From sequence record PZ445419.1: DNA of 44,882 bases, one strand, 5' to 3'. A model generated the notes under the pieces. That model did not search any database, was not told the DNA's origin, and saw only the letters and a list, made by a program, of their open reading frames with translations. Of this stretch, positions 10,119 through 39,763 are shown in pieces (positions within the stretch are counted from its first letter, which is position 1; the number at the start of each line of letters is the position of its first letter). The stretch is from a phage. The position numbers and the translations under genes are program-made.

Positions 10119-10142
10119 GGGGCCAGCAAGGCCCCTTTTTTT
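10119..10142 (+). terminator. intrinsic terminator after major tail gene
   Basis: GGGGCC-agcaa-GGCCCC followed by TTTTTTT. Confidence 0.65.
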
Positions 10143-10158
10143 ATTGGAGAATACTACA

Positions 10159-10521
10159 ATGGCTAAAGCACCACTCTTTACACTTGACCCTAAGCCGACC
10201 TTTAAGCTGCCGATTGAGATCCCGCGCCCTGGTGAGAACGAACCAGGCAAGATGACGTTTACCGTCCGCCACCGCCCTATCGACGAATTTTCGCAGACCA
10301 TGCAGGACACCGAACGCAAGTTGTCGGAGTATGACGACAATGACCCGGACGGCTTTAACGTTATGGTCGAGGCCATCATGCACGTCGCAGAAGGCTGGAA
10401 TCTGCCGGACGAATTTAACGCGGAGAACGTCCGCCGCCTGGTGGTCAACTATCCACGCGCGTTCGGTGTGTTCCACACTTCGTACTATCTCGAACTGATG
10501 GGATTGCGTGAAAAAAACTAA
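10159..10521 (+). CDS. tail assembly chaperone (G-like)
   Basis: 120-aa ORF between major tail and tape-measure genes; ATG 10159 with GGAG RBS preferred over the track start 10117, which lies inside the upstream terminator hairpin. Confidence 0.65.
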   Translation: MAKAPLFTLDPKPTFKLPIEIPRPGENEPGKMTFTVRHRPIDEFSQTMQDTERKLSEYDDNDPDGFNVMVEAIMHVAEGWNLPDEFNAENVRRLVVNYPRAFGVFHTSYYLELMGLREKN

Positions 10522-10835
10522 TTGAGGCGGCGCGACGCTTTTATGGTCCGCCGCCACCCTCCGAAGATTTAGCCGCAAGTTTATGGGGTGCGACCCCCGA
10601 AGATGTTTGTCCGCCTGTTGCGCTGTGGCCTGACAACGCGAAGATAGTCGCAGTCTTCACAGATTGCGCCACGCAATGGCGCACCGGATTTGGTGGCGCA
10701 TACGGCATCGACTACGGCGTGCTGGAGTGGTTATTTAAGATGCACGGTATCGAAAACGAGCAGCGCGCGTTTAAAGATATCAAGCTAATGGAACGAATCG
10801 CGCTTGATGAGATGGCGCAGCAGAACCCCGCATAA
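10159..10835 (+). CDS. tail assembly chaperone GT-like fusion made by -1 programmed ribosomal frameshift
   Basis: Slippery heptamer A_AAA_AAC at 10512-10518, two codons before the G stop; the -1 frame is open for 106 further codons to TAA 10833-10835 and has no ATG of its own. Confidence 0.55.
10512..10518 (+). other. -1 programmed frameshift slippery site (A AAA AAC)
   Basis: X_XXY_YYZ heptamer inside the run GAAAAAAAC at the 3' end of the G-like gene. Confidence 0.55.
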
Positions 10836-10839
10836 TGAA

Positions 10840-11156
10840 GCGGGACAGGCGGGACGTCCCGTTTTGTCCCACCCCTGTGAAACTGCATACCTACTCACTT
10901 CCATTGCATAATATAAAAGCGGGACAAGCGGGACGTCCCGTTTTGTCCCACCCCACAAAAGTGCATACGTATTCGGTTTTCGTGCATAAAACAAACGGGA
11001 CAAAAAGCGGGACAAACACTAGGCGGGACAAAGCGGGACAGCACCCCGTCCCAGCCAGTGCTGCCGCGGTTTTCAGCCGATCGGGACAGCGGGACAGCAC
11101 CCCAGTCTTTCAGACTAGACGGGGGTCAATGGCCCCCCTCGTCTGAGACTGAATAA
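10840..11156. repeat. iteron-like array of GCGGGACA repeats with GGGACGTCCC dyads, ending in a conserved 57-bp palindrome (module copy 1)
   Basis: About 13 GCGGGACA/GGGACG/TGTCCC copies at 9-12 bp spacing; an imperfect 80-bp tandem duplication (10846-10995); the last ~140 bp is homologous to 38930-39069. Confidence 0.8.
11100..11156. repeat. 57-bp palindromic element, copy 1 (identical to 39013-39069)
   Basis: CCCCAGTCTTTCAGACTAGACGGGGGTCAATGGCCCCCCTCGTCTGAGACTGAATAA; nested dyads CAGTCT/AGACTG, AGACG/CGTCT, GGGGG/CCCCC around a TCAATGG loop. Confidence 0.8.
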
Positions 11157-11219
11157 GGTTTGTTTTGAAATCGCTGATACAATATACATCGGCAACTGCA
11201 TAAAAAAGGGGACTGCATA

Positions 11220-13862
11220 ATGGCAGATCAGGCAGCAGGCATCACGCTAAAGGCTGATGTTGCACAAATCAGAACGGCAAATACTGTGCTGGACTCCTTC
11301 GCACAGAAATCCGAGAACACAGAAAACAAGGTTAAGAAATTAAACGACACCCTCGGCAAATCCAAAAAGGTGACGAGTGACGCCGCGGGCGGAATGGAAA
11401 AGCTGGCAAACGAATCGCAGCGCGCCGCCGATGGCATGACGAAACAGGAGCGACTCGCCAACAGGTTAGGGATGTCGACTAAAAACCTGGGCTTTGCCTC
11501 GCGTAACGCCGCATTCCAGCTACAGGATATTGCGGTAACGCTTGAGATGGGTATGCCGGTTCACCGCGTCATGCTTCAGCAGTTACCGCAGCTAACTGGG
11601 GCGTTCGGTGGACTGGGTAACACGCTGCGTTATGTTGCGGGCTTCCTCGGCCCAGTAGGGATCGGCCTCGCCGCCGTAACGGCAACGTTAGGCGTGGGCG
11701 TGGCAATTACGTCCCGCGCAGAGAACCAGGTCGCCGCGCTTAACAAGACGCTGGCGCTGTCAGGTAACATTTCCGGCCTGACGGCAAACCAGATCCTGGT
11801 GCTATCCGAGAACGCCGAGCGCATGGGCGGGTCGTTCCGCAAGACGCGTGACACAATCCAGGCGCTGGCGGCGGCGGGTGTGAAAGCGGGTGGTGACTTC
11901 GGCGCATTGGCTAAGGTAGTTAATGACTTTGCGAAGGTGTCCAGCCAGCCGATCGAGGATGTGGTAGCGGCGGTGGCGAAGCTGTCAACCGACCCCGTTG
12001 GCGGACTGCGTGCGCTGGCGGATAAGTATCACGTCGTAAACGAAGCGCAGATCCAGCAGGTACAGTCGCTCGTTGATGCGGGTCGTGAGACAGACGCAGT
12101 TGCGCTGGCTAACAAAACAGCCGCCGCGTCGTTTACCACTATGACCAATGAGATCAAGTCCAACATGGGTACGCTTGAGCGGTCGATGAACGTCGTTACA
12201 TCGGCAGCTAAATCTATGTGGGATGCCATCCTGGATGTCGGGCGCGCGCAGTCCTCGAATGAGTCAGAGATGAAAGCGCGTGAATCATTGCAGCGACTGA
12301 CCACGGCTTACTATGCCGAGATGAAAGCGGTAAACGCTGCCGGTGGGGTGATGACCGAAGCGCAGAAAGCGCGTATTAACATGCTTTACAGCGAACTGGT
12401 AGCCCAGGAAAAAGTAGTGGCGTCGCTCACCCTGCGCAACCGTGCCGAGCGGGACAACGCCAGCGCCGCGGACGCAGCAGCAAAGGCGAACGAAGAGGCA
12501 AACCGCACCGCCCGCGACCGCGCTGCGTTCGAGAAGGAGTACGCAACCAACGCGAAGAGGCGCGCCGACGAGATCGCCCGCCTAAATTTGCTTAATAAGC
12601 GCGGCGTGATTGACGAGAAAGAGCTTGCCGAGGCGGTGAAGCAGGTAAACGAGCGTTACAAAGACCCCGCCCCGAAGAAGGCCGCCGCTGTTCGAGTCGA
12701 TGCCGGGCTGAAAATGCTGGAAGTCGCGCGAAGCGAATTAGCCCAGCTTCGTGAGTCTGGAAAGCAGATCGAAGCCAACGCATCGACGCAGACCCGCACG
12801 CAACGCGCGCAGGCGGCCCTAAACAAGCTGATCGCGGATAATGAGCAGTTAATCGCAGCAAGCAAAGAAAGAGCACTAACGGCAGCAGAAAAGCAGCAGA
12901 TGGTCGAATTCGGACGCGTGAAGGAAGTACGCGAGCAGATCGTCGAAGAAGCCAAATTGCTGGACGCGAAAGAGAAGCAGGTCAAGGCGCACGCGCAGAT
13001 CGACGCCTTCGTTAAGAACCAGAACGCCGAGCTAAAAGCCACCGCGGCGGGATATGCGCTTTCCACTCGCGAAGCGGCTAACCTGCGCGAAGAATTGCAG
13101 CTGATTGACCGCCTTAAGCGGGTGGGTGCTAGCGATACCGATATTGATCTGGCGGTGTCTAAGCTGCGCGAAGTGCAGGAAGCACAGACCGGTGCTAACG
13201 CCTCGCTGTGGGATGGCTTCAGCCGCGGGCTTAAGGATAGCGTGGATGAAATGGGTAACGGTTACACGCAGATGACGTCACTCACAAAATTCACGTTCGG
13301 CGCTATGCAGGACACAATGAATGAGTTTTTCGAGACTGGCAAGCTGAACGCAAAAGATATGGTTAAGTCCATCCTGAGCGAATTAATCAAGCTGGCTACA
13401 TCGCAAGCATTCAAGTCCATCGTTAGCGCTTTCGGTGGCGACGGCGGCAAAAACGGATTGTTCGGCGCTATCTTCTCCGGCCTCACTAAGAATGCGGACG
13501 GCGGAGCGTACGCAGGGGGCAATCTCGCGGACTATTCGGGGCAGGTGGTAAGCCAGCCCACCTTTTTCAGTTATGGCGTACAGGCGTTCGCTAAGGGCGC
13601 AGGATTGATGGGGGAGGCCGGACCCGAGGCCATCATGCCGCTGAAGCGCGGGCCAGACGGGAAACTGGGCGTTGCCGCTGCCGGTGTAGGCGGGGGGATG
13701 ATTGTAACGACCAACGTTAACATGGGGACCGGTAAGACGGATACCAGTGTTAGCGGACCAGACCCGCGCACCGCGCAGGCGTTCGGGAAGCAAATCACCG
13801 AGTCGGTCAAGGCCGAGATCGTGAAGGCGACGAAACCGGGTGGTGTACTTTACAAACGGTGA
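11220..13862 (+). CDS. tail tape measure protein
   Basis: 880-aa ORF, Ala/Gln/Lys/Glu-rich helical composition, located after chaperone G/GT and before the distal tail genes. Confidence 0.85.
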   Translation: MADQAAGITLKADVAQIRTANTVLDSFAQKSENTENKVKKLNDTLGKSKKVTSDAAGGMEKLANESQRAADGMTKQERLANRLGMSTKNLGFASRNAAFQLQDIAVTLEMGMPVHRVMLQQLPQLTGAFGGLGNTLRYVAGFLGPVGIGLAAVTATLGVGVAITSRAENQVAALNKTLALSGNISGLTANQILVLSENAERMGGSFRKTRDTIQALAAAGVKAGGDFGALAKVVNDFAKVSSQPIEDVVAAVAKLSTDPVGGLRALADKYHVVNEAQIQQVQSLVDAGRETDAVALANKTAAASFTTMTNEIKSNMGTLERSMNVVTSAAKSMWDAILDVGRAQSSNESEMKARESLQRLTTAYYAEMKAVNAAGGVMTEAQKARINMLYSELVAQEKVVASLTLRNRAERDNASAADAAAKANEEANRTARDRAAFEKEYATNAKRRADEIARLNLLNKRGVIDEKELAEAVKQVNERYKDPAPKKAAAVRVDAGLKMLEVARSELAQLRESGKQIEANASTQTRTQRAQAALNKLIADNEQLIAASKERALTAAEKQQMVEFGRVKEVREQIVEEAKLLDAKEKQVKAHAQIDAFVKNQNAELKATAAGYALSTREAANLREELQLIDRLKRVGASDTDIDLAVSKLREVQEAQTGANASLWDGFSRGLKDSVDEMGNGYTQMTSLTKFTFGAMQDTMNEFFETGKLNAKDMVKSILSELIKLATSQAFKSIVSAFGGDGGKNGLFGAIFSGLTKNADGGAYAGGNLADYSGQVVSQPTFFSYGVQAFAKGAGLMGEAGPEAIMPLKRGPDGKLGVAAAGVGGGMIVTTNVNMGTGKTDTSVSGPDPRTAQAFGKQITESVKAEIVKATKPGGVLYKR

Positions 13863-24401: not shown

Positions 24402-24431
24402 AATATAATGCAACCAACCTATTGGTTGCAA
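24402..24431 (-). promoter_or_regulatory. candidate sigma70-type promoter overlapping a palindromic ATTGGTTGC operator
   Basis: Minus strand TTGCAA-18 nt-TATATT; spacer is the perfect inverted repeat TGCAACCAA-tagg-TTGGTTGCA (24409-24430); GC hairpin in the leader at 24376-24395. Confidence 0.45.
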
Positions 24432-32179: not shown

Positions 32180-32962
32180 TTAACGGCGGCGACGTTTACG
32201 TGGCGCTTCGTCTTCGTCGTCGTCCTCATCTTCGTCATCGCGTGGCTTACGACGCTTGCGAGGTTTTTCATCTTCCTCATCGTCGTCGTCATCGCGGCGC
32301 TTGGATTTCTTGGACTTGCGCGGCTTGTCATCTTCATCATCGTCATCACGACGTTTTGACTTTTTGGACTTGCGCGGTGCTTCGTCTTCGTCGTCGTTGT
32401 CCAGGTCTTCATCGGAGCAAGAAGACCCGCCACCTCCGAAGGCTTCGCCGTCTTCACGGAATCGCAGACCCAGCAAGCCAGCCCCGAGACCCTTGCCGTT
32501 GGTATTGTTCCATGCCCAAATATCAAGGGACACGTTGCAATAACAACCGGAGTAGATCTCCTGGCCTTCAATCTCGTCGCCGTCGATGGTCAGACCTTGT
32601 TCAGTCTGCTTCTCGCCGAGTGACGTTTGAATGATTGGTTGTTTGAACGATTTGGCGTTGATATACAACATGCCTTCGAATTCTTCGGTTACTTCATCGC
32701 GCTCGTCACCGTCGCGAACTGCACATTCCTTAGAATCCTGGGCGTAGTGGCGGTCCATCCACTTATCGGCATTCTTCTCGGATTTCAGCTTGTCGGTGAG
32801 CACTGCGCGTGCTGCCGCTTCCACTTTGTCCACCTGCGGATCTTCTTTATCCAGAAGAATCACGGCACGGTATGCCGGTTTTTGTCCATCCTGTTTAGGG
32901 GTATCACGTTCCCAAATTTTCAGGAAACATACGCGCACATTTTTCAGGTTGACTTTAGCCAT
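32180..32962 (-). CDS. phage ssDNA-binding protein-like (DUF2815-like) with repetitive charged C-terminal tail
   Basis: 260-aa ORF from MAKVNLKNVRVCF (GAGGA RBS); N-terminal globular region resembles DUF2815 proteins; C-terminal ~70 aa alternate basic (RKSKKSKRR) and acidic (DDDDEDD) blocks. Confidence 0.55.
   Translation of the reverse strand: MAKVNLKNVRVCFLKIWERDTPKQDGQKPAYRAVILLDKEDPQVDKVEAAARAVLTDKLKSEKNADKWMDRHYAQDSKECAVRDGDERDEVTEEFEGMLYINAKSFKQPIIQTSLGEKQTEQGLTIDGDEIEGQEIYSGCYCNVSLDIWAWNNTNGKGLGAGLLGLRFREDGEAFGGGGSSCSDEDLDNDDEDEAPRKSKKSKRRDDDDEDDKPRKSKKSKRRDDDDDEEDEKPRKRRKPRDDEDEDDDEDEAPRKRRRR
32195..32400. repeat. imperfect ~57-60-bp tandem repeats encoding the charged C-terminal tail
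   Basis: Repeated GACTTGCGCGG...CTTCATCATCGTC units on the plus strand encode KPRKSKKSKRRDDDD(E)DD repeats on the minus strand. Confidence 0.6.
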
Positions 32963-35206: not shown

Positions 35207-35740
35207 TTAATCTTCCAGTTCGAAATAGGTTTCGACGATTTCTTTTAAATCTTTGTGGAAGTCTTCAACGTCGTCGTCTTCCAGCTTGGCGATGGATTTA
35301 ATTTCGAACGCGTCCAGCAGATCATCAAATTCGTCGTTCGCATCATCATCATCACCGCCTGCAATGATAGCGGCATACTGTTTGATTTCGTCGCGCATCT
35401 CTGCCAGCGGGTCGGCATCTTTCTTACCTTTGCCTTTCGCTTTTTTAGCCTTAGCCGGTTTTTCGTCTTCGGCGTCTTCGTCGTCGTCATCTTCTACGAC
35501 TTCTTTTTTGGCCTTACCTTTAGACTTGGTTTCTTTTGCAGCGCCTTTTTTCGCTTTAGGCGTATCTTCGACTTCGTCCTGATCATCGTCTTCGACTTCG
35601 GTCTCCGGCTTGGCCTTGCCTTTCTTAGCGGTGCCGTTTGCTTTCGGTTCTACGGCCGCGCCAGCAGTTTCATAATGCTTAGCGATGACTTCCAGTGCTA
35701 CTACGCCGCGAGTGATCAGGTTTACGATTTGCTCAAACAT
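35207..35740 (-). CDS. highly charged Lys/Glu/Asp-block protein (hypothetical; first gene of leftward operon)
   Basis: 177-aa ORF from ATG 35740 (GGAG RBS); alternating K-rich (KAKKAKGKGKK) and D/E-rich (VEDDDDEDAEDE) blocks; track ORF starts further upstream without RBS. Confidence 0.55.
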   Translation of the reverse strand: MFEQIVNLITRGVVALEVIAKHYETAGAAVEPKANGTAKKGKAKPETEVEDDDQDEVEDTPKAKKGAAKETKSKGKAKKEVVEDDDDEDAEDEKPAKAKKAKGKGKKDADPLAEMRDEIKQYAAIIAGGDDDDANDEFDDLLDAFEIKSIAKLEDDDVEDFHKDLKEIVETYFELED

Positions 35741-36142: not shown

Positions 36143-36472
36143 ATGAATATCAAAGAAGCAATTGAAGTGTTATCTAATGCAATCCGCGGCGAAGCGGGTA
36201 AATCCTGGTATTACACAAATGCGGTGGATACTCTGTTATTTGAAGTGTCCAGATTATCGCGTGCTGAGAAGGAGCTTACCGCGAAGCTGGAATTGCTCAA
36301 CGGCACGGCAGCAAGCAAGCTGCAAAAACACAATGAAGAAATGGAAGAATACAAAAAGCAGGTTATCCGTTTGCGCAATGAGGGAAAGTCATGGGCAATG
36401 ATCGCCGAGTTGACCGGAATTAATCAGAGCACAGTGCGCTCCTGGGTACGCAATAATAAAACTTCAAAGTAA
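36143..36472 (+). CDS. helix-turn-helix DNA-binding protein (putative transcriptional regulator)
   Basis: 109-aa ORF; C-terminal SWAMIAELTGINQSTVRSWVRNN resembles a sigma-70 region 4/LuxR-type HTH; RBS context GGAGACTGAATT. Confidence 0.55.
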   Translation: MNIKEAIEVLSNAIRGEAGKSWYYTNAVDTLLFEVSRLSRAEKELTAKLELLNGTAASKLQKHNEEMEEYKKQVIRLRNEGKSWAMIAELTGINQSTVRSWVRNNKTSK

Positions 36473-36482
36473 GGCCACGGCA

Positions 36483-38747
36483 ATGAGCTTAATTAAATTC
36501 GCTGTAACACGACCCGCTAAAAAAGGCGAAAAAGCCAGGGCGGAAAACTTCCAGATGACTACCGAAGAGTTTTTCGAATTTATCAATGATGCGAAAGAAA
36601 TCTCCTCGGTGCATATCAACAAGACGGAAGATAAAGCGGAGTATGCGCGCCGCAAGCGTAAGGCCGATGGCATCGTGGCATATACCAGTGACGGCTTACG
36701 CCGTAAGACCAGCGCGGTGGACCGCTCGATCCTGTTCTTTGATATTGACCGCACCGACACTCGCACCCTGCGCCGCTGCCGTAAGGCGTTCATCGACGCG
36801 GGTCTGGAACACGTATTTCACACCACAACCGGCGACCGCCACCCGCTGAAAGGGGGCACGCGTTGCGCCCGTTTCCTGGTGCTCACGGACAAGCCGGTAC
36901 CGGCTGAAGACCTGGGCCGCGTCCAGTATGCACTATTACACCAACTGGGTCTGTCAGATGTGGACTTCGACGACTGTACAAAAGACACTAACCGCCTTAT
37001 GTACCTGCCACATCAGCAGTCTGTCGTTAAGTGCCACTACGGCAAGCGCGCCCGCGTCCGTCGTCTGCTCCGCCTGGCTGATAAGCTGGGAGTGGAAAAA
37101 GAGGAAGTACGACGCGAACTGACCCAGGGCGATGACGGCGTGGCTGACGGTATTCTGGATTGGTGCTTCCAGGCGGGATTCGAACCGCTGTCGTCTGGTC
37201 GTGGTTATGAAGTACCGTGTCCGAACGAACATCTGCACTCTGGTGAAGGGTCCACCGCTATCATGGTTAAGGATGGCGAGATCCGTTTCAAGTGTATGCA
37301 CACCGGCAACGAGTGCTGTTCCGAACTGAACAGACACCAGCACCTGGCGCTACGTCTTATCGGGATCCCGGACCACCTTAACGTCGAACCGCACAACATG
37401 TCACGTAAGCAAATCGCCGCCATCCTTCCGGGACTGGACGATGAGGAAGTGGAATCGTGCTATGAACATATCGTTGATGCGGTCGGTGACGGCGACGAGT
37501 ACGGCGGATGTACGGACGCAGACCTGGACAACGAGCCGGTTGCGCTGTTCAGTAAGCACGACCCGATCATCGAGGGGCTGATTAACTTCAAATCGACCTG
37601 GTATCTCGCCGGTGAGTCGAACATTGGCAAGTCGTTCTACGTGCTGGGCCAGATGGCGTCAGTATCTGCCGGTATTCCGTTCGGCGGCGCGAAGGTCGTC
37701 CAGTGCCACAACTTCTATTTCGACGCGGAAGGTGGTGAAGCCTCCAACCAGCGTAAAGAAGCATTGCAGATCAAATATGAGCACGACCTGGACAAGCTGC
37801 ACATTATCGATCTGCAGTCACGCGGCTGGGATATCACCAGCAAGTCAGGATTGCGTGAAGTTATCAGCTTCATCAACCGCACCGCTAACGGCGAACCGGT
37901 TGGCCTGGTGGCGTTCGACTCTCTCAACCAGACTGTTGCGCTGCGGTCCGCCGATGCTAAACCGTTCGACGAGAACAACGCCAGCGATATGGGCGAAGTG
38001 GTAAAAGCGCTGAAAGCCATCGCGGAAAATACCGGCGGCAGTGCTGGCGTCATCCACCACCCGGCGAAGGGTGCAAACGGCAGCAGATCCCCCCGCGGGT
38101 CCGGCGCGCTGCATGGTGCTGTTGATTCTGCGTTCTTCCTGGAGCAACCGGACGACAACCAGCCAGGCCAATTGAACCTGTATCACGAAAAGGCACGTAA
38201 CGGCATCAAGCAAGCGCCGCGTGGCTTCGTCCTGCTCAAGTGCAAGGTGAAGGTAGATCTCCGCAAGTCAGAAGCGTTCGCGTCGCACCAGTCCACCAGC
38301 ACCGGTCCGGACTTCGGAGACGTAGTTGCCGGTTGGGACGTCAAACCAATTGCGTCCACCCCGCGCGACGAGACTTTATACCTCGTACCGGTCGCCCTGG
38401 CACCGTTCGCTATAGAACAGGCGAAGGCCGCAGGAAAAGCCGCAGTTAAGGAAGAGAACACCGCCGGACCGCGCACCGAAAAAGAAAAGGTACTTTACGC
38501 GGCCCTGGAAAAACTGATGGAAGATAACCCGGACCATACCGGATTCAGTAAATCGGCAATTGTCCGCCAGGCTGGGCTTGCGAAAGGTGGAACATCGACG
38601 AAGGCAATCGACGATATGATCGAGCGCGGAGTGTTAGGTTTTTATACCGATCCGCACACTGGGGCCATCTATGGGTCGTCGAATATCGTCATCAAAACAA
38701 ATATACCCATCACGCTTTCGGCGACCGATGACGACCTGAAAGATTAA
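36483..38747 (+). CDS. primase/replicative helicase-like protein (AAA_25/RepA-like ATPase with N-terminal primase-like region)
   Basis: 754-aa ORF; Walker A-like AGESNIGKSF followed by a RecA-fold-like region; N-terminal half contains FFDIDRTD. Confidence 0.55.
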   Translation: MSLIKFAVTRPAKKGEKARAENFQMTTEEFFEFINDAKEISSVHINKTEDKAEYARRKRKADGIVAYTSDGLRRKTSAVDRSILFFDIDRTDTRTLRRCRKAFIDAGLEHVFHTTTGDRHPLKGGTRCARFLVLTDKPVPAEDLGRVQYALLHQLGLSDVDFDDCTKDTNRLMYLPHQQSVVKCHYGKRARVRRLLRLADKLGVEKEEVRRELTQGDDGVADGILDWCFQAGFEPLSSGRGYEVPCPNEHLHSGEGSTAIMVKDGEIRFKCMHTGNECCSELNRHQHLALRLIGIPDHLNVEPHNMSRKQIAAILPGLDDEEVESCYEHIVDAVGDGDEYGGCTDADLDNEPVALFSKHDPIIEGLINFKSTWYLAGESNIGKSFYVLGQMASVSAGIPFGGAKVVQCHNFYFDAEGGEASNQRKEALQIKYEHDLDKLHIIDLQSRGWDITSKSGLREVISFINRTANGEPVGLVAFDSLNQTVALRSADAKPFDENNASDMGEVVKALKAIAENTGGSAGVIHHPAKGANGSRSPRGSGALHGAVDSAFFLEQPDDNQPGQLNLYHEKARNGIKQAPRGFVLLKCKVKVDLRKSEAFASHQSTSTGPDFGDVVAGWDVKPIASTPRDETLYLVPVALAPFAIEQAKAAGKAAVKEENTAGPRTEKEKVLYAALEKLMEDNPDHTGFSKSAIVRQAGLAKGGTSTKAIDDMIERGVLGFYTDPHTGAIYGSSNIVIKTNIPITLSATDDDLKD

Positions 38748-38758
38748 ATTTTGCGTGT

Positions 38759-38867
38759 ATTGGTTGCCTATATGGGAATCCCCATATCGCTAAACGATTA
38801 ATTTGTGCGCGAATTGGTTGCCATTTTGAGTGTTTTTATCTGGTCGCATTGGTTGCCGTGTAGCGTG
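38759..38867 (+). repeat. three direct ATTGGTTGCC motif copies in an AT-rich spacer
   Basis: Exact copies at 38759-38768, 38813-38822 and 38858-38867; the first is followed by the palindrome TATATGGG-aat-CCCCATAT. Confidence 0.7.
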
Positions 38868-38907
38868 ATTATTATGAATAGTTATGCAATAAAACTGCAT
38901 AAAGTAA

Positions 38908-39069
38908 GCGGGACAGAAAGCGGGACAGACATGGGGCGGGACAAAGCGGGACAGCACCCCCGTCCCGCCCCGGATGGCGCGGCCTGGCGTGGGGCGGGAC
39001 AAGCGGGACAAACCCCAGTCTTTCAGACTAGACGGGGGTCAATGGCCCCCCTCGTCTGAGACTGAATAA
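38908..39069. repeat. iteron-like GCGGGACA array ending in the conserved 57-bp palindrome (module copy 2)
   Basis: Six direct GCGGGACA/CGGGACA copies plus an inverted GTCCCG copy; 38930-39069 is homologous to the 3' part of 10840-11156. Confidence 0.8.
39013..39069. repeat. 57-bp palindromic element, copy 2 (identical to 11100-11156)
   Basis: Same 57-nt sequence as copy 1, base for base. Confidence 0.8.
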
Positions 39070-39224
39070 AATCCGGGGATTGCAAAATACACGGCAGCAT
39101 GAGGCGAAGTGCGGTCGCGGATGAACTTGGCAACCAATGCGGGTTGTATTATGCTGAGTGAAAAATGCGGTTTGCAGTCACAGCAGATAGCGATCAACTT
39201 TTTCATGCGCATGATTAATATTGG

Positions 39225-39253
39225 TTGCATTCGTTCCAGCACCCTGCTAGATT
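39225..39253 (+). promoter_or_regulatory. candidate promoter for the rightward small-gene operon with ATTGGTTGCA motifs
   Basis: TTGCAT-17 nt-TAGATT; motif copies at 39220-39229 and 39251-39260; leader ATTGGTTGCACACCAACAAGAGGAC closely matches the moron leader at 5217-5250. Confidence 0.45.
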
Positions 39254-39283
39254 GGTTGCACACCAACAAGAGGACTGCACAAA

Positions 39284-39763
39284 ATGAAATTTCCAGTAAT
39301 CATCAAAGACGGTAAATCAACTATCACCTTCACCGGCAACGACCACGGCACTTACGAGAGCGGCGCGGCTTGCATGTCCACCCTGGAAGATATGATGATT
39401 CGTGTTAATTCCGGTAAAGCCTCGATTGTTGACGACAACACTAAGAAGGACCGAACAATGAGAGCACTAATCTGGAATTACTCACTGGCCCTGGCAAAGC
39501 TGAACGAAGCGAAGGCGCTGAACGGCAACGTAGACCGTGCGCGCCAGTTTGCGACACTGGCACACCAGTCAATCATGTGTGCGCTAGACGATATGGACGC
39601 CAGCATGGATGGCCTGGGTCCGCTGCGTAAGGCAATCCATGAATACGCGCTGGCATTCTCCCGTGAGCGCCTGGCTTATCGCTTCGGTATTGGCGAGAAG
39701 GCAGTGACAAACGTCGCCAGGATTAAAGCCCAGCGTGAGCTATTCGCCCAGCTTGCGAAATAA
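39284..39763 (+). CDS. hypothetical protein
   Basis: 159-aa ORF, first gene after the long regulatory region. Confidence 0.55.
   Translation: MKFPVIIKDGKSTITFTGNDHGTYESGAACMSTLEDMMIRVNSGKASIVDDNTKKDRTMRALIWNYSLALAKLNEAKALNGNVDRARQFATLAHQSIMCALDDMDASMDGLGPLRKAIHEYALAFSRERLAYRFGIGEKAVTNVARIKAQRELFAQLAK

Follow-up and report, generated by a model that had tools for sequence, protein, structure and literature searches.

In phage P4 the iterons of ori and crr, which lie 4.5 kb apart, are both bound by the alpha protein. Distant extra iteron arrays bound by the same initiator are also found in R6K (gamma/alpha/beta) and P1 (incC/incA), where they act, via looping or handcuffing, as additional origins or control elements. 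In pRN1, the gene of a small DNA-binding protein is followed by ORF904, which encodes a PrimPol-helicase-winged-helix protein, and a large stem-loop immediately 3' of ORF904 serves as origin and remains functional when displaced; a similar arrangement was proposed for the Bordetella phages BIP-1/BPP-1 (PMC4234260). P4 alpha and ORF904 share the domain logic of the phage protein described below, and the origin of each is found beside its gene or after it (PMC4234260). The DNA analysed here, a stretch of 44,882 bp (the window, record PZ445419.1), corresponds to the whole genome of Escherichia phage Oekolampad (Bas18, MZ501095.1), a member of the genus Dhillonvirus, in rotated form, 551 being subtracted from record coordinates to give window coordinates. 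The analysis concerned two related repeat arrays, region A between the G/GT tail assembly chaperone and tape-measure genes, and region B after the primase-helicase gene.

With moderate confidence, we propose that regions A and B are arrays of an 8-bp iteron, GCGGGACA, read by the C-terminal winged helix of the phage's PrimPol-helicase, region B being of origin type and region A a second origin or an enhancer. The proposal draws on the anatomy of the arrays, the clade-wide conservation of the module, the winged-helix fold prediction, the covariation of winged helix and iteron, and their exchange as a cassette. The mechanism that we envisage would run from binding through unwinding to priming, with a possible contribution of region A to replication. 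Several initiator molecules would dock on the direct repeats via their winged helices and oligomerise into a helicase ring, which would melt neighbouring AT-rich or hairpin DNA and start primer synthesis at that place; region A could be a second origin, or a cis-acting enhancer looping to region B like crr in P4. Within a large clade of small siphoviruses, region B appears to represent the ancestral module of origin type, directly 3' of the primase-helicase gene, and region A appears to be a duplicate of that module with two extra 79-bp iteron units, inserted at one and the same junction in Dhillonvirus and in Eiauvirus. Under an extension of this proposal, which we consider unlikely, initiator loading at region A of this virulent siphovirus would tie replication physically to the late transcription of the tail genes, for instance through gating of tape-measure expression or a loop to region B; the portable cassette of winged helix and iterons would then be a replicon-specificity (incompatibility) module swapped among co-infecting phages across Dhillonvirus, Eiauvirus and Guernseyvirinae.

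The likeness to P4 lies in an octamer iteron present at two separate loci, one array adjoining the initiator gene, and in a single polypeptide that joins primase and hexameric helicase to a C-terminal winged helix, the putative reader of the repeats. However, alpha combines a Toprim primase with an SF3 helicase, whereas the Oekolampad protein has an AEP PrimPol and a RepA/AAA_25-type helicase; the Oekolampad loci are 17-28 kb apart, the second one lies inside the late structural operon, and the module includes a long hairpin. There is no sequence similarity, and the analogy is one of architecture, not homology. The oriV of RSF1010 (IncQ) likewise has direct iterons, a spacer and then stem-loops (ssiA/ssiB) where an AEP-type primase starts, and it uses a RepA-family helicase, matched in Oekolampad by a weak sequence hit (1g8y) and by Pfam AAA_25. 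But RSF1010 employs three separate proteins (RepC, RepA and RepB'), its iteron binder RepC is unfused to the helicase, and it has two opposed ssi hairpins where the phage has one long imperfect palindrome, at which priming may occur. As in pRN1, Oekolampad has a small DNA-binding protein gene, a PrimPol-helicase-winged-helix gene and a stem-loop 3' of it; pRN1, in contrast, has an SF3 helicase and no iterons, whereas the phage module is iteron-dominated and has a natural second copy. R6K and P1 are copy-controlled plasmids or prophages with a dedicated Rep, whereas Oekolampad is virulent and its putative reader is fused to the replicative primase-helicase. Among primase-helicase-fusion iteron origins, the duplication into a tail operon and the integral hairpin are unusual.

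Anatomy of regions A and B

The features of region A and its surroundings were as follows.

10119-10135 (terminator scan): intrinsic terminator GGGGCCAGCAAGGCCCC then TTTTTTT, directly after the major tail protein gene
G end at 10521, T-frame stop at 10835: G/GT tail assembly chaperone (sequence, open reading frame (ORF) list, record annotation)
10836-11219, no strand assigned: region A, 384-bp non-coding gap from G/GT to the tape-measure gene (sequence, ORF list, annotation)
10838-10875, + strand: GC block 1, AAGCGGGACAGGCGGGACGTCCCGTTTTGTCCCACCCC, four half-sites (two direct, two inverted), among them the 12-bp dyad CGGGACGTCCCG
10841-11003, + strand: imperfect tandem duplication, period 79, 2.1 copies, 79% matches (Tandem Repeats Finder (TRF), repeat family D5)
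10917-10954, + strand: GC block 2, 97% identical to block 1 (repeat family D5)
10983-11156, + strand: shared module, copy A (family D2): TGCATAAA leader, four direct iterons, inverted copy, spacer, two iterons, hairpin
10996-11052, + strand: four direct CGGGACA iterons (10996, 11008, 11024, 11034) and the inverted GTCCC at 11048
11082-11097, + strand: pair of abutting iterons, CGGGACAGCGGGACAG, with the hairpin directly 3' of it (motif positions, TRF)
11103-11151, no strand assigned: imperfect hairpin or cruciform of 49 nt that lacks an immediately following U/T tract
11175-11183, + strand: TGATACAAT, resembling an extended -10 element, with the tape-measure ATG 37 nt downstream (read from sequence)
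11220-13862: tape-measure gene (sequence, ORF list, record annotation)

The window has 15 copies of the octamer GCGGGACA, where 2.19 +/- 1.53 were expected, and 0 of 100 shuffles reached this number. Twelve of the 15 copies fell within the two arrays, six in 10840-11096 and six in 38908-39010; such clustering of a short, directly repeated motif well beyond chance expectation is a mark of iteron-type origins. Each 79-bp unit of region A is composed of a 38-bp GC block and a 41-bp AT-richer spacer with two TGCATA motifs, and the single-strand fold of GC block 1 was no better than that of shuffles (z = -1.1). The inverted GTCCC at 11048 makes a dyad with the fourth iteron (11034), and the AT-rich content of region A is confined to short spacers. 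As DNA, the hairpin at 11103-11151 had a folding energy of -13.4 kcal/mol (z = -3.24), which 1 of 200 shuffles equalled. Downstream of it, TGATACAAT was invariant among 18 aligned Dhillonvirus copies of region A and was not called by a two-hexamer promoter scan; it is possibly a restart promoter for transcription after region A. The feature is real and strongly non-random, and a replication-initiator binding array is its most likely assignment.

An earlier, sequence-only reading of this DNA had described a 317-bp non-coding block here with about 13 copies of the motif. The block is indeed non-coding, but the full gap measures 384 bp, and the count was close to the approximately 15 half-sites that we found, namely ten direct CGGGAC copies on the + strand (10841, 10850, 10920, 10929, 10996, 11008, 11024, 11034, 11082 and 11090) and five inverted GTCCC copies (10856, 10866, 10935, 10945 and 11048). 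The spacing of one helical turn that it assigned to them holds approximately only, the distances between neighbouring direct copies being 9, 9, 12, 16, 10 and 8 bp, plus one gap of 48 bp. Its imperfect tandem duplication of about 80 bp was recovered by TRF, and its terminal palindrome, given as 57 bp, corresponds to the 49-nt imperfect hairpin. The recurrence of about 140 bp that it noted at 38930-39069 proved longer, covering 174 bp at 38896-39069. It had also taken the block for the site of a multimeric DNA-binding protein, and the array does look like one.

Region B and the gene before it comprise the following features.

36483-38747, + strand: primase-helicase, 754 residues, with predicted N-terminal AEP PrimPol fold, Cys/His cluster, RepA-type AAA_25 helicase, C-terminal winged helix and acidic tail
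38460-38702, + strand: predicted winged helix, about residues 660-740, proposed iteron reader (AlphaFold2, Foldseek)
38748-39283, no strand assigned: region B, 536-bp non-coding stretch after the primase-helicase gene
38865-38907, no strand assigned: AT-rich leader, about 23% G+C, with a TGAATAGTTATGCA...TGCATAAAG element (read from sequence)
38896-39069, + strand: module copy B, iterons at 38909, 38921, 38937, 38947, 38995 and 39004, inverted GTCCC at 38962
39016-39064, no strand assigned: copy B hairpin, within 39012-39069

The two module copies, 10983-11156 and 38896-39069, were 80% identical without gaps (repeat family D2), and their last 58 bp, hairpin included (11099-11156 and 39012-39069), were 100% identical. 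The iterons were spaced 12-16-10-48-8 in copy A and 12-16-10-48-9 in copy B, and because of this match we regard the two as homologous copies of one module. In region B the module is flanked by ATTGGTTGC promoter/operator-like motifs, and its leader, which is also present in the relatives L104, L108, L119, L121 and L007, provides the adjacent AT-rich, easily melted element of iteron origins and carries the TGAATAGTTATGC element common to relatives.

Exact copies of ATTGGTTGC were found at 15 positions (5241, 5255, 21348, 24421, 26320, 26337, 29294, 35944, 38759, 38813, 38848, 39130, 39220, 39251 and 39961) and were often paired. Many lie 25-75 bp upstream of gene starts and are oriented toward the gene, whereas those at 24421 and 39961 are intragenic. 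The motif resembles a phage promoter (-35-like TTGGTT/TTGCA) or an operator element, and its counterparts in relatives are ATGTTGGCTG (Guernseyvirinae-like) and TGCAACCAAC (eiAU).

The primase-helicase and its match to the repeats

The sole Pfam match in the primase-helicase was the AAA_25 helicase core at residues 357-531, and its PHROG label is 'replicative helicase-primase'. Its N- and C-terminal parts had no match in Pfam and NCBIfam even at E = 10, and the PDB sequence search returned only a marginal match to RepA (1g8y, E = 0.036). Since these searches gave nothing beyond the marginal RepA match, we turned to fold prediction. Residues 1-360, modelled with AlphaFold (pLDDT 83), matched the AEP domain of the S-2L PrimPol from a cyanophage (E = 3e-5) and also Prim-PolC/LigD polymerase domains. 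The model of residues 560-754 was confident (pLDDT 75-89) for about 660-740 only, where it formed a helix-helix-helix-strand-wing-strand arrangement, and the top Foldseek PDB matches of this segment were all winged-helix proteins (MarR family members PcaV and MepR, histone H1, IclR, Rio2 and ORC2), with probabilities mostly of 0.8-1.0. The protein ends in an acidic tail, ...DDDLKD. According to these models, the architecture is PrimPol, helicase and winged helix, and the predicted folds thus give Oekolampad a primase-helicase with a C-terminal winged-helix DNA-binding domain, as in P4.

Homologues were sought with the full primase-helicase, as a 170-residue C-terminal query gave one partial protein only. 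Relatives with 37-49% identical primase-helicases, including Cornellvirus PhiSTP1 (Guernseyvirinae), had a module of the same layout just after the gene, consisting of an AT-rich TGAATAGTTATGC leader, 3-5 direct 7-8-mers, a single inverted copy that makes a dyad, roughly 30 nt of spacer, two further repeats and an imperfect hairpin of about 50 nt. The 7-8-mers were lineage-specific (CGGACAA, AGGGATAA, GGGGAGA, TTCCGACA, GGGATGAA and TTGCGAGT, with GCGGGACA in Dhillonvirus), and the PhiSTP1 genome had a single such cluster, after the primase-helicase gene. Because distant relatives carry the module at this place, region B is best regarded as the ancestral clade-wide element and region A as its second copy, a relationship that the sequence-only reading had missed when it noted the copy at about 38.9 kb.

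The primase-helicases of these phages aligned well save for the last ~110 residues. Across 35 loci of seven lineages, the putative recognition-helix segment (H2-turn-H3 by model position) mapped one-to-one onto the repeat motif. The proteins of L115 and L116 were 99% identical over alignment columns 0-640 and 50% identical C-terminally, with the motifs CGGACAA and TTCCGACA respectively, and those of L104 and L119 showed 96% versus 50% (C-terminal part) identity, with the motifs CGGACAA and GGGGAGA. The C-terminal parts of these recombinant pairs grouped with more distant phages having the same motif. Nucleotide breakpoints were found about 310 nt before the stop codon in both pairs, and the similarity of L115 and L116 returned just after the module. 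Since the members of each pair differ mostly C-terminally and in the motif, the match of motif and domain does not reflect shared ancestry alone, and the breakpoints indicated that the C-terminal domain and the module were exchanged together as one cassette. The analysis yields a testable prediction with a defined cis module, a defined reader domain and natural swap variants, and the two pairs amount to a ready-made specificity experiment.

As possible binders, the sequence-only reading had named small helix-turn-helix proteins or the N-terminal domain of the primase, whereas the models, the covariation and the cassette exchange make the C-terminal winged helix of the primase-helicase the likeliest. 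The small helix-turn-helix protein (36143-36472) was considered as the iteron reader and is not favoured, in that the region upstream of the primase-helicase gene is 95-98% identical between L115 and L116 and their motifs differ; the comparison covered the nucleotide region that holds the helix-turn-helix gene in Oekolampad.

Several points weigh against the proposal that the winged helix reads both arrays for replication. The Foldseek E-values of the winged helix were weak (0.01-0.3). The winged helix and the iterons are adjacent, and physical linkage could contribute to their covariation. Six relatives of one lineage (L103, L105, L106, L107, L110 and L113) had no module within 3 kb after the primase-helicase gene, and in Guernseyvirinae-like relatives TTATTCATTT follows the hairpin, which may simply terminate the early operon there. 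A leftward fork from region A would collide head-on with late transcription, and the two extra 79-bp units had a nucleotide diversity of 0.12-0.19, near that of third codon positions. GC skew, tried as an origin indicator, merely mirrored gene orientation and gave no independent origin signal, and our literature searches found no replication-mapping or experimental work on these phages.

Distribution and conservation of region A

Region A was matched in 159 of 159 Dhillonvirus records of the phage collection at 80-100% identity, 152 of them with at least 80% coverage. Among IMG/VR loci, the gap from the T stop to the tape-measure gene was 357-406 bp in all 14 measurable Dhillonvirus loci, versus -26 to +42 bp (overlap or abutment) in about 55 of 60 other relatives, whose T domains were 42-49% identical; G/GT also abuts the tape-measure gene in PhiSTP1 and in Aeromonas phage pAEv1818. 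Since the gap is present in all Dhillonviruses and abutment prevails in most relatives, region A is an insertion relative to other phages that is fixed in Dhillonvirus. This agrees with the sequence-only reading, which had seen an insertion into the usual G/GT-tape-measure junction. Presence/absence polymorphism and varied sites, as expected of an element like a miniature inverted-repeat transposable element, were not observed, all 159 records matching region A and all 14 measurable loci having the gap at this junction. No match to region A, and hence no host copy, was found in 5,426 E. coli genomes, and the plasmid search returned no informative characterised replicon. IMG/VR matches to the hairpin motif outside Dhillonvirus and eiAU (L023, L033, L038 and others) were rejected as unrelated hairpins or a tRNA T-arm.

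Within Dhillonvirus, the hairpin (11104-11151) was the most conserved part of region A, with a nucleotide diversity of 0.03, followed by the main iteron block at 10996-11053 and its adjacent spacer with 0.08-0.09; third codon positions of the flanking genes served as the reference (0.16-0.25). The value of 0.22 for the two iterons at 11082-11103 may partly be an alignment effect. The loop and apex of the hairpin varied and the stem was invariant, so the lower stem offered no variation for covariation.

In Edwardsiella phage eiAU-183 (Eiauvirus), gaps of about 1.1 kb at the G/GT-tape-measure junction and about 0.9 kb after the primase-helicase gene both carried one shared GC-rich repeat, TCGCCCCG, which is unlike the Dhillonvirus motif. 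One iteron at two separated loci, as in ori and crr of P4, is therefore found in both Oekolampad and eiAU-183. A hairpin with the same GACGGGGG...CCCCTCGTC core as in Dhillonvirus lies just upstream of the eiAU-183 tape-measure gene. The Eiauvirus region A (L009, 42152-42893) also has three minus-strand ORFs of 70, 117 and 58 residues, preceded by a run of GCAACCAA motifs within which the public record opened; the 117-residue product has, judged by eye, a helix-turn-helix-like segment at its end. In four other IMG/VR relatives (L164, L165, L174 and L196), the T stop was separated from the start of the tape-measure gene by a moron-like insert of 380-830 bp, which held a single gene in L164, L165 and L174 and ended in a terminator in all four, and because of these inserts the junction can be regarded as a recurrent insertion site.

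The two regions have been seen before as repeats. The SO-1 GenBank record (2009) annotates 'region A' and 'region B' with direct, inverted and palindromic repeats and mutual similarity, and other records mark small 'repeat_region' or 'terminator' features there. Our literature searches found no published account of regions A and B, of the clade-wide module or of the winged helix/iteron cassette, no described replication origin for Dhillonvirus or Guernseyvirinae, and no description of the motif strings GCGGGACA and GAATAGTTATGC. Members of Dhillonvirus and of Guernseyvirinae (Jerseyvirus, Kagunavirus, Cornellvirus) rank with the coliphages and Salmonella phages isolated most frequently, and therapy and biocontrol work makes use of them. 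Should the proposal hold, the origin and specificity cassette would aid phage engineering (minimal replicons, control of recombination between cocktail phages), and cloned iteron arrays would be usable as phage-specific titration decoys. It also raises the question of why a second initiator-binding array persists in the late structural operon of two genera.

Region A is, in addition, a probable source of assembly breaks. LR990702.1, MZ234029.1, OX460974.1 and KF772234.1 are among the assemblies that start or end inside it, probably as breaks at the repeat shared by regions A and B. The records of Campylobacter phage A144 and Acinetobacter phage NJ01 were 88-95% identical to Dhillonviruses over region A, which makes their host labels doubtful.

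Competing explanations

The strongest rival is transcription punctuation, which is compatible with an initiator-binding role and does not exclude it. The hairpin, with or without a repeat-bound protein, would terminate, pause or attenuate transcription and a promoter just downstream would restart it, so that region A would set the ratio of tape-measure and distal tail genes to chaperone and major tail genes, and region B would end the early operon. At both loci every direct repeat points along transcription, the 5' arm of the hairpin can pair with an upstream segment (AGTCT/AGACT) in an attenuator-like manner, and promoter-like sequences follow, the conserved TGATACAAT after region A and a TTGGCA-17-TATGCT site after region B. 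Moreover, GCGGGACGTCCCGTTTT is annotated as a terminator in the WFI record, and the TTATTCATTT after the hairpin of relatives is T-rich. However, an intrinsic terminator consists of a GC-rich hairpin and then a U/T tract, and the Dhillonvirus hairpins are followed by GAATAAGG (A) and GAATAAAA (B); the terminator scan called none on the + strand at 11103-11151 or 39016-39064. The operon already has its attenuating terminator at 10119-10135, the expected attenuator of the tail operon and the only clean terminator in the stretches scanned. Strand asymmetry of the hairpin was tried as a discriminator between RNA and DNA and dropped, as the hairpin folded about equally well on either strand with no consistent + strand advantage; the minus-strand form was as stable or more, with no sign of an RNA-only constraint. 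Punctuation also leaves unexplained why the motif tracks the winged helix of the primase-helicase and why the two are exchanged as a cassette. We consider it unlikely, although better placed than any other alternative. Next in order, and improbable in our view, region A would be a largely neutral duplicate of the origin module, placed by illegitimate recombination at a permissive junction and either functionless or a sink that titrates the initiator. The junction does tolerate insertions, as the moron genes of four relatives and the three minus-strand ORFs of eiAU attest, the 79-bp units drift near the synonymous rate, and other clades manage without region A. Yet region A is kept in every Dhillonvirus record across the range of identities given above, its shared module is more conserved than synonymous sites, and the Eiauvirus region A array matches its own, different region B motif, which requires either co-evolution of A and B or independent acquisition.

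Two further explanations carry much less weight. It is very unlikely that region A is a pac or recombination site, at which a small terminase or recombinase would bind the repeats and the palindrome would be the point of cleavage or exchange. Repeat arrays flank the pac sites of P1 and SPP1, and four public records (Maverick, CHD5UKE2, Kente and eiAU-183) begin or end inside region A. But pac usually lies in or near the small terminase gene, and in the record annotation terS sits at the record start, about 11 kb from region A; record ends of this kind are expected from assemblers at a 58-174-bp repeat, and the eiAU break is inside the tandem GCAACCAA repeat. The genome annotation has no integrase or site-specific recombinase, and the repeat motif tracks the primase-helicase. 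Packaging was found to be headful by PhageTerm on Opt-212, without a mapped pac site (PMC9022532). We give equally little credence to a structured non-coding RNA, for example a protein sponge with repeated GGGAC, or to a small protein made from the annotated ORFs. The + strand of regions A and B folded below shuffles (z = -2.8 and -2.5 respectively), but this signal came mostly from the hairpin and was equally good on the other strand, and the whole window had zero matches in Rfam (Rfam 15, gathering threshold) and neither tRNA nor tmRNA by ARAGORN. The annotated hypothetical proteins bas18_0018 (10982-11146) and bas18_0052 (38874-39059) cross the arrays and end inside the hairpin. Their ORFs are open through both copies in Oekolampad, but 9 of the 18 copies of region A from other Dhillonviruses, and 3 of the 15 of region B, had lost the start or frame or lacked the terminal stop; the frame in which the ORFs cross the repeats also shifts, and a Pfam search gave no match. 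Both are probably spurious calls, which means an annotation correction for two 'hypothetical proteins' per genome; PhiSTP1_021 looks like a similar case. Among the roles listed by the sequence-only reading, a secondary origin is the one that the evidence favours, whereas nothing found here spoke for antitermination, a late activator or a packaging site, the sigma-70 scan having found no promoter inside either array, in keeping with the terminator and Rfam results above.

Other features of these genomes were recorded in passing. The six relatives with no module within 3 kb after the primase-helicase gene have a bidirectional terminator and convergent genes right after it, and their C-terminal domain is still similar (PGGG-RRPALKALAERG). 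The Dhillonvirus protein that triggers Avs2, Ksap1, is located elsewhere in the genome. Runs of TCGTC/TCATC-type repeats (family D1) occur among minus-strand genes at 32196-32414 and 35313-35600, in the area of a putative single-stranded DNA-binding protein gene and neighbouring early genes, and would encode acidic Asp/Glu-rich stretches if read on the minus strand. Downstream of region B, the ORF of bas18_0053 (annotation start 39458) extends upstream to an ATG at 39284 (window 39284-39763) with a good Shine-Dalgarno sequence, aagagga, before it, and its product is probably 159 residues long instead of 101.

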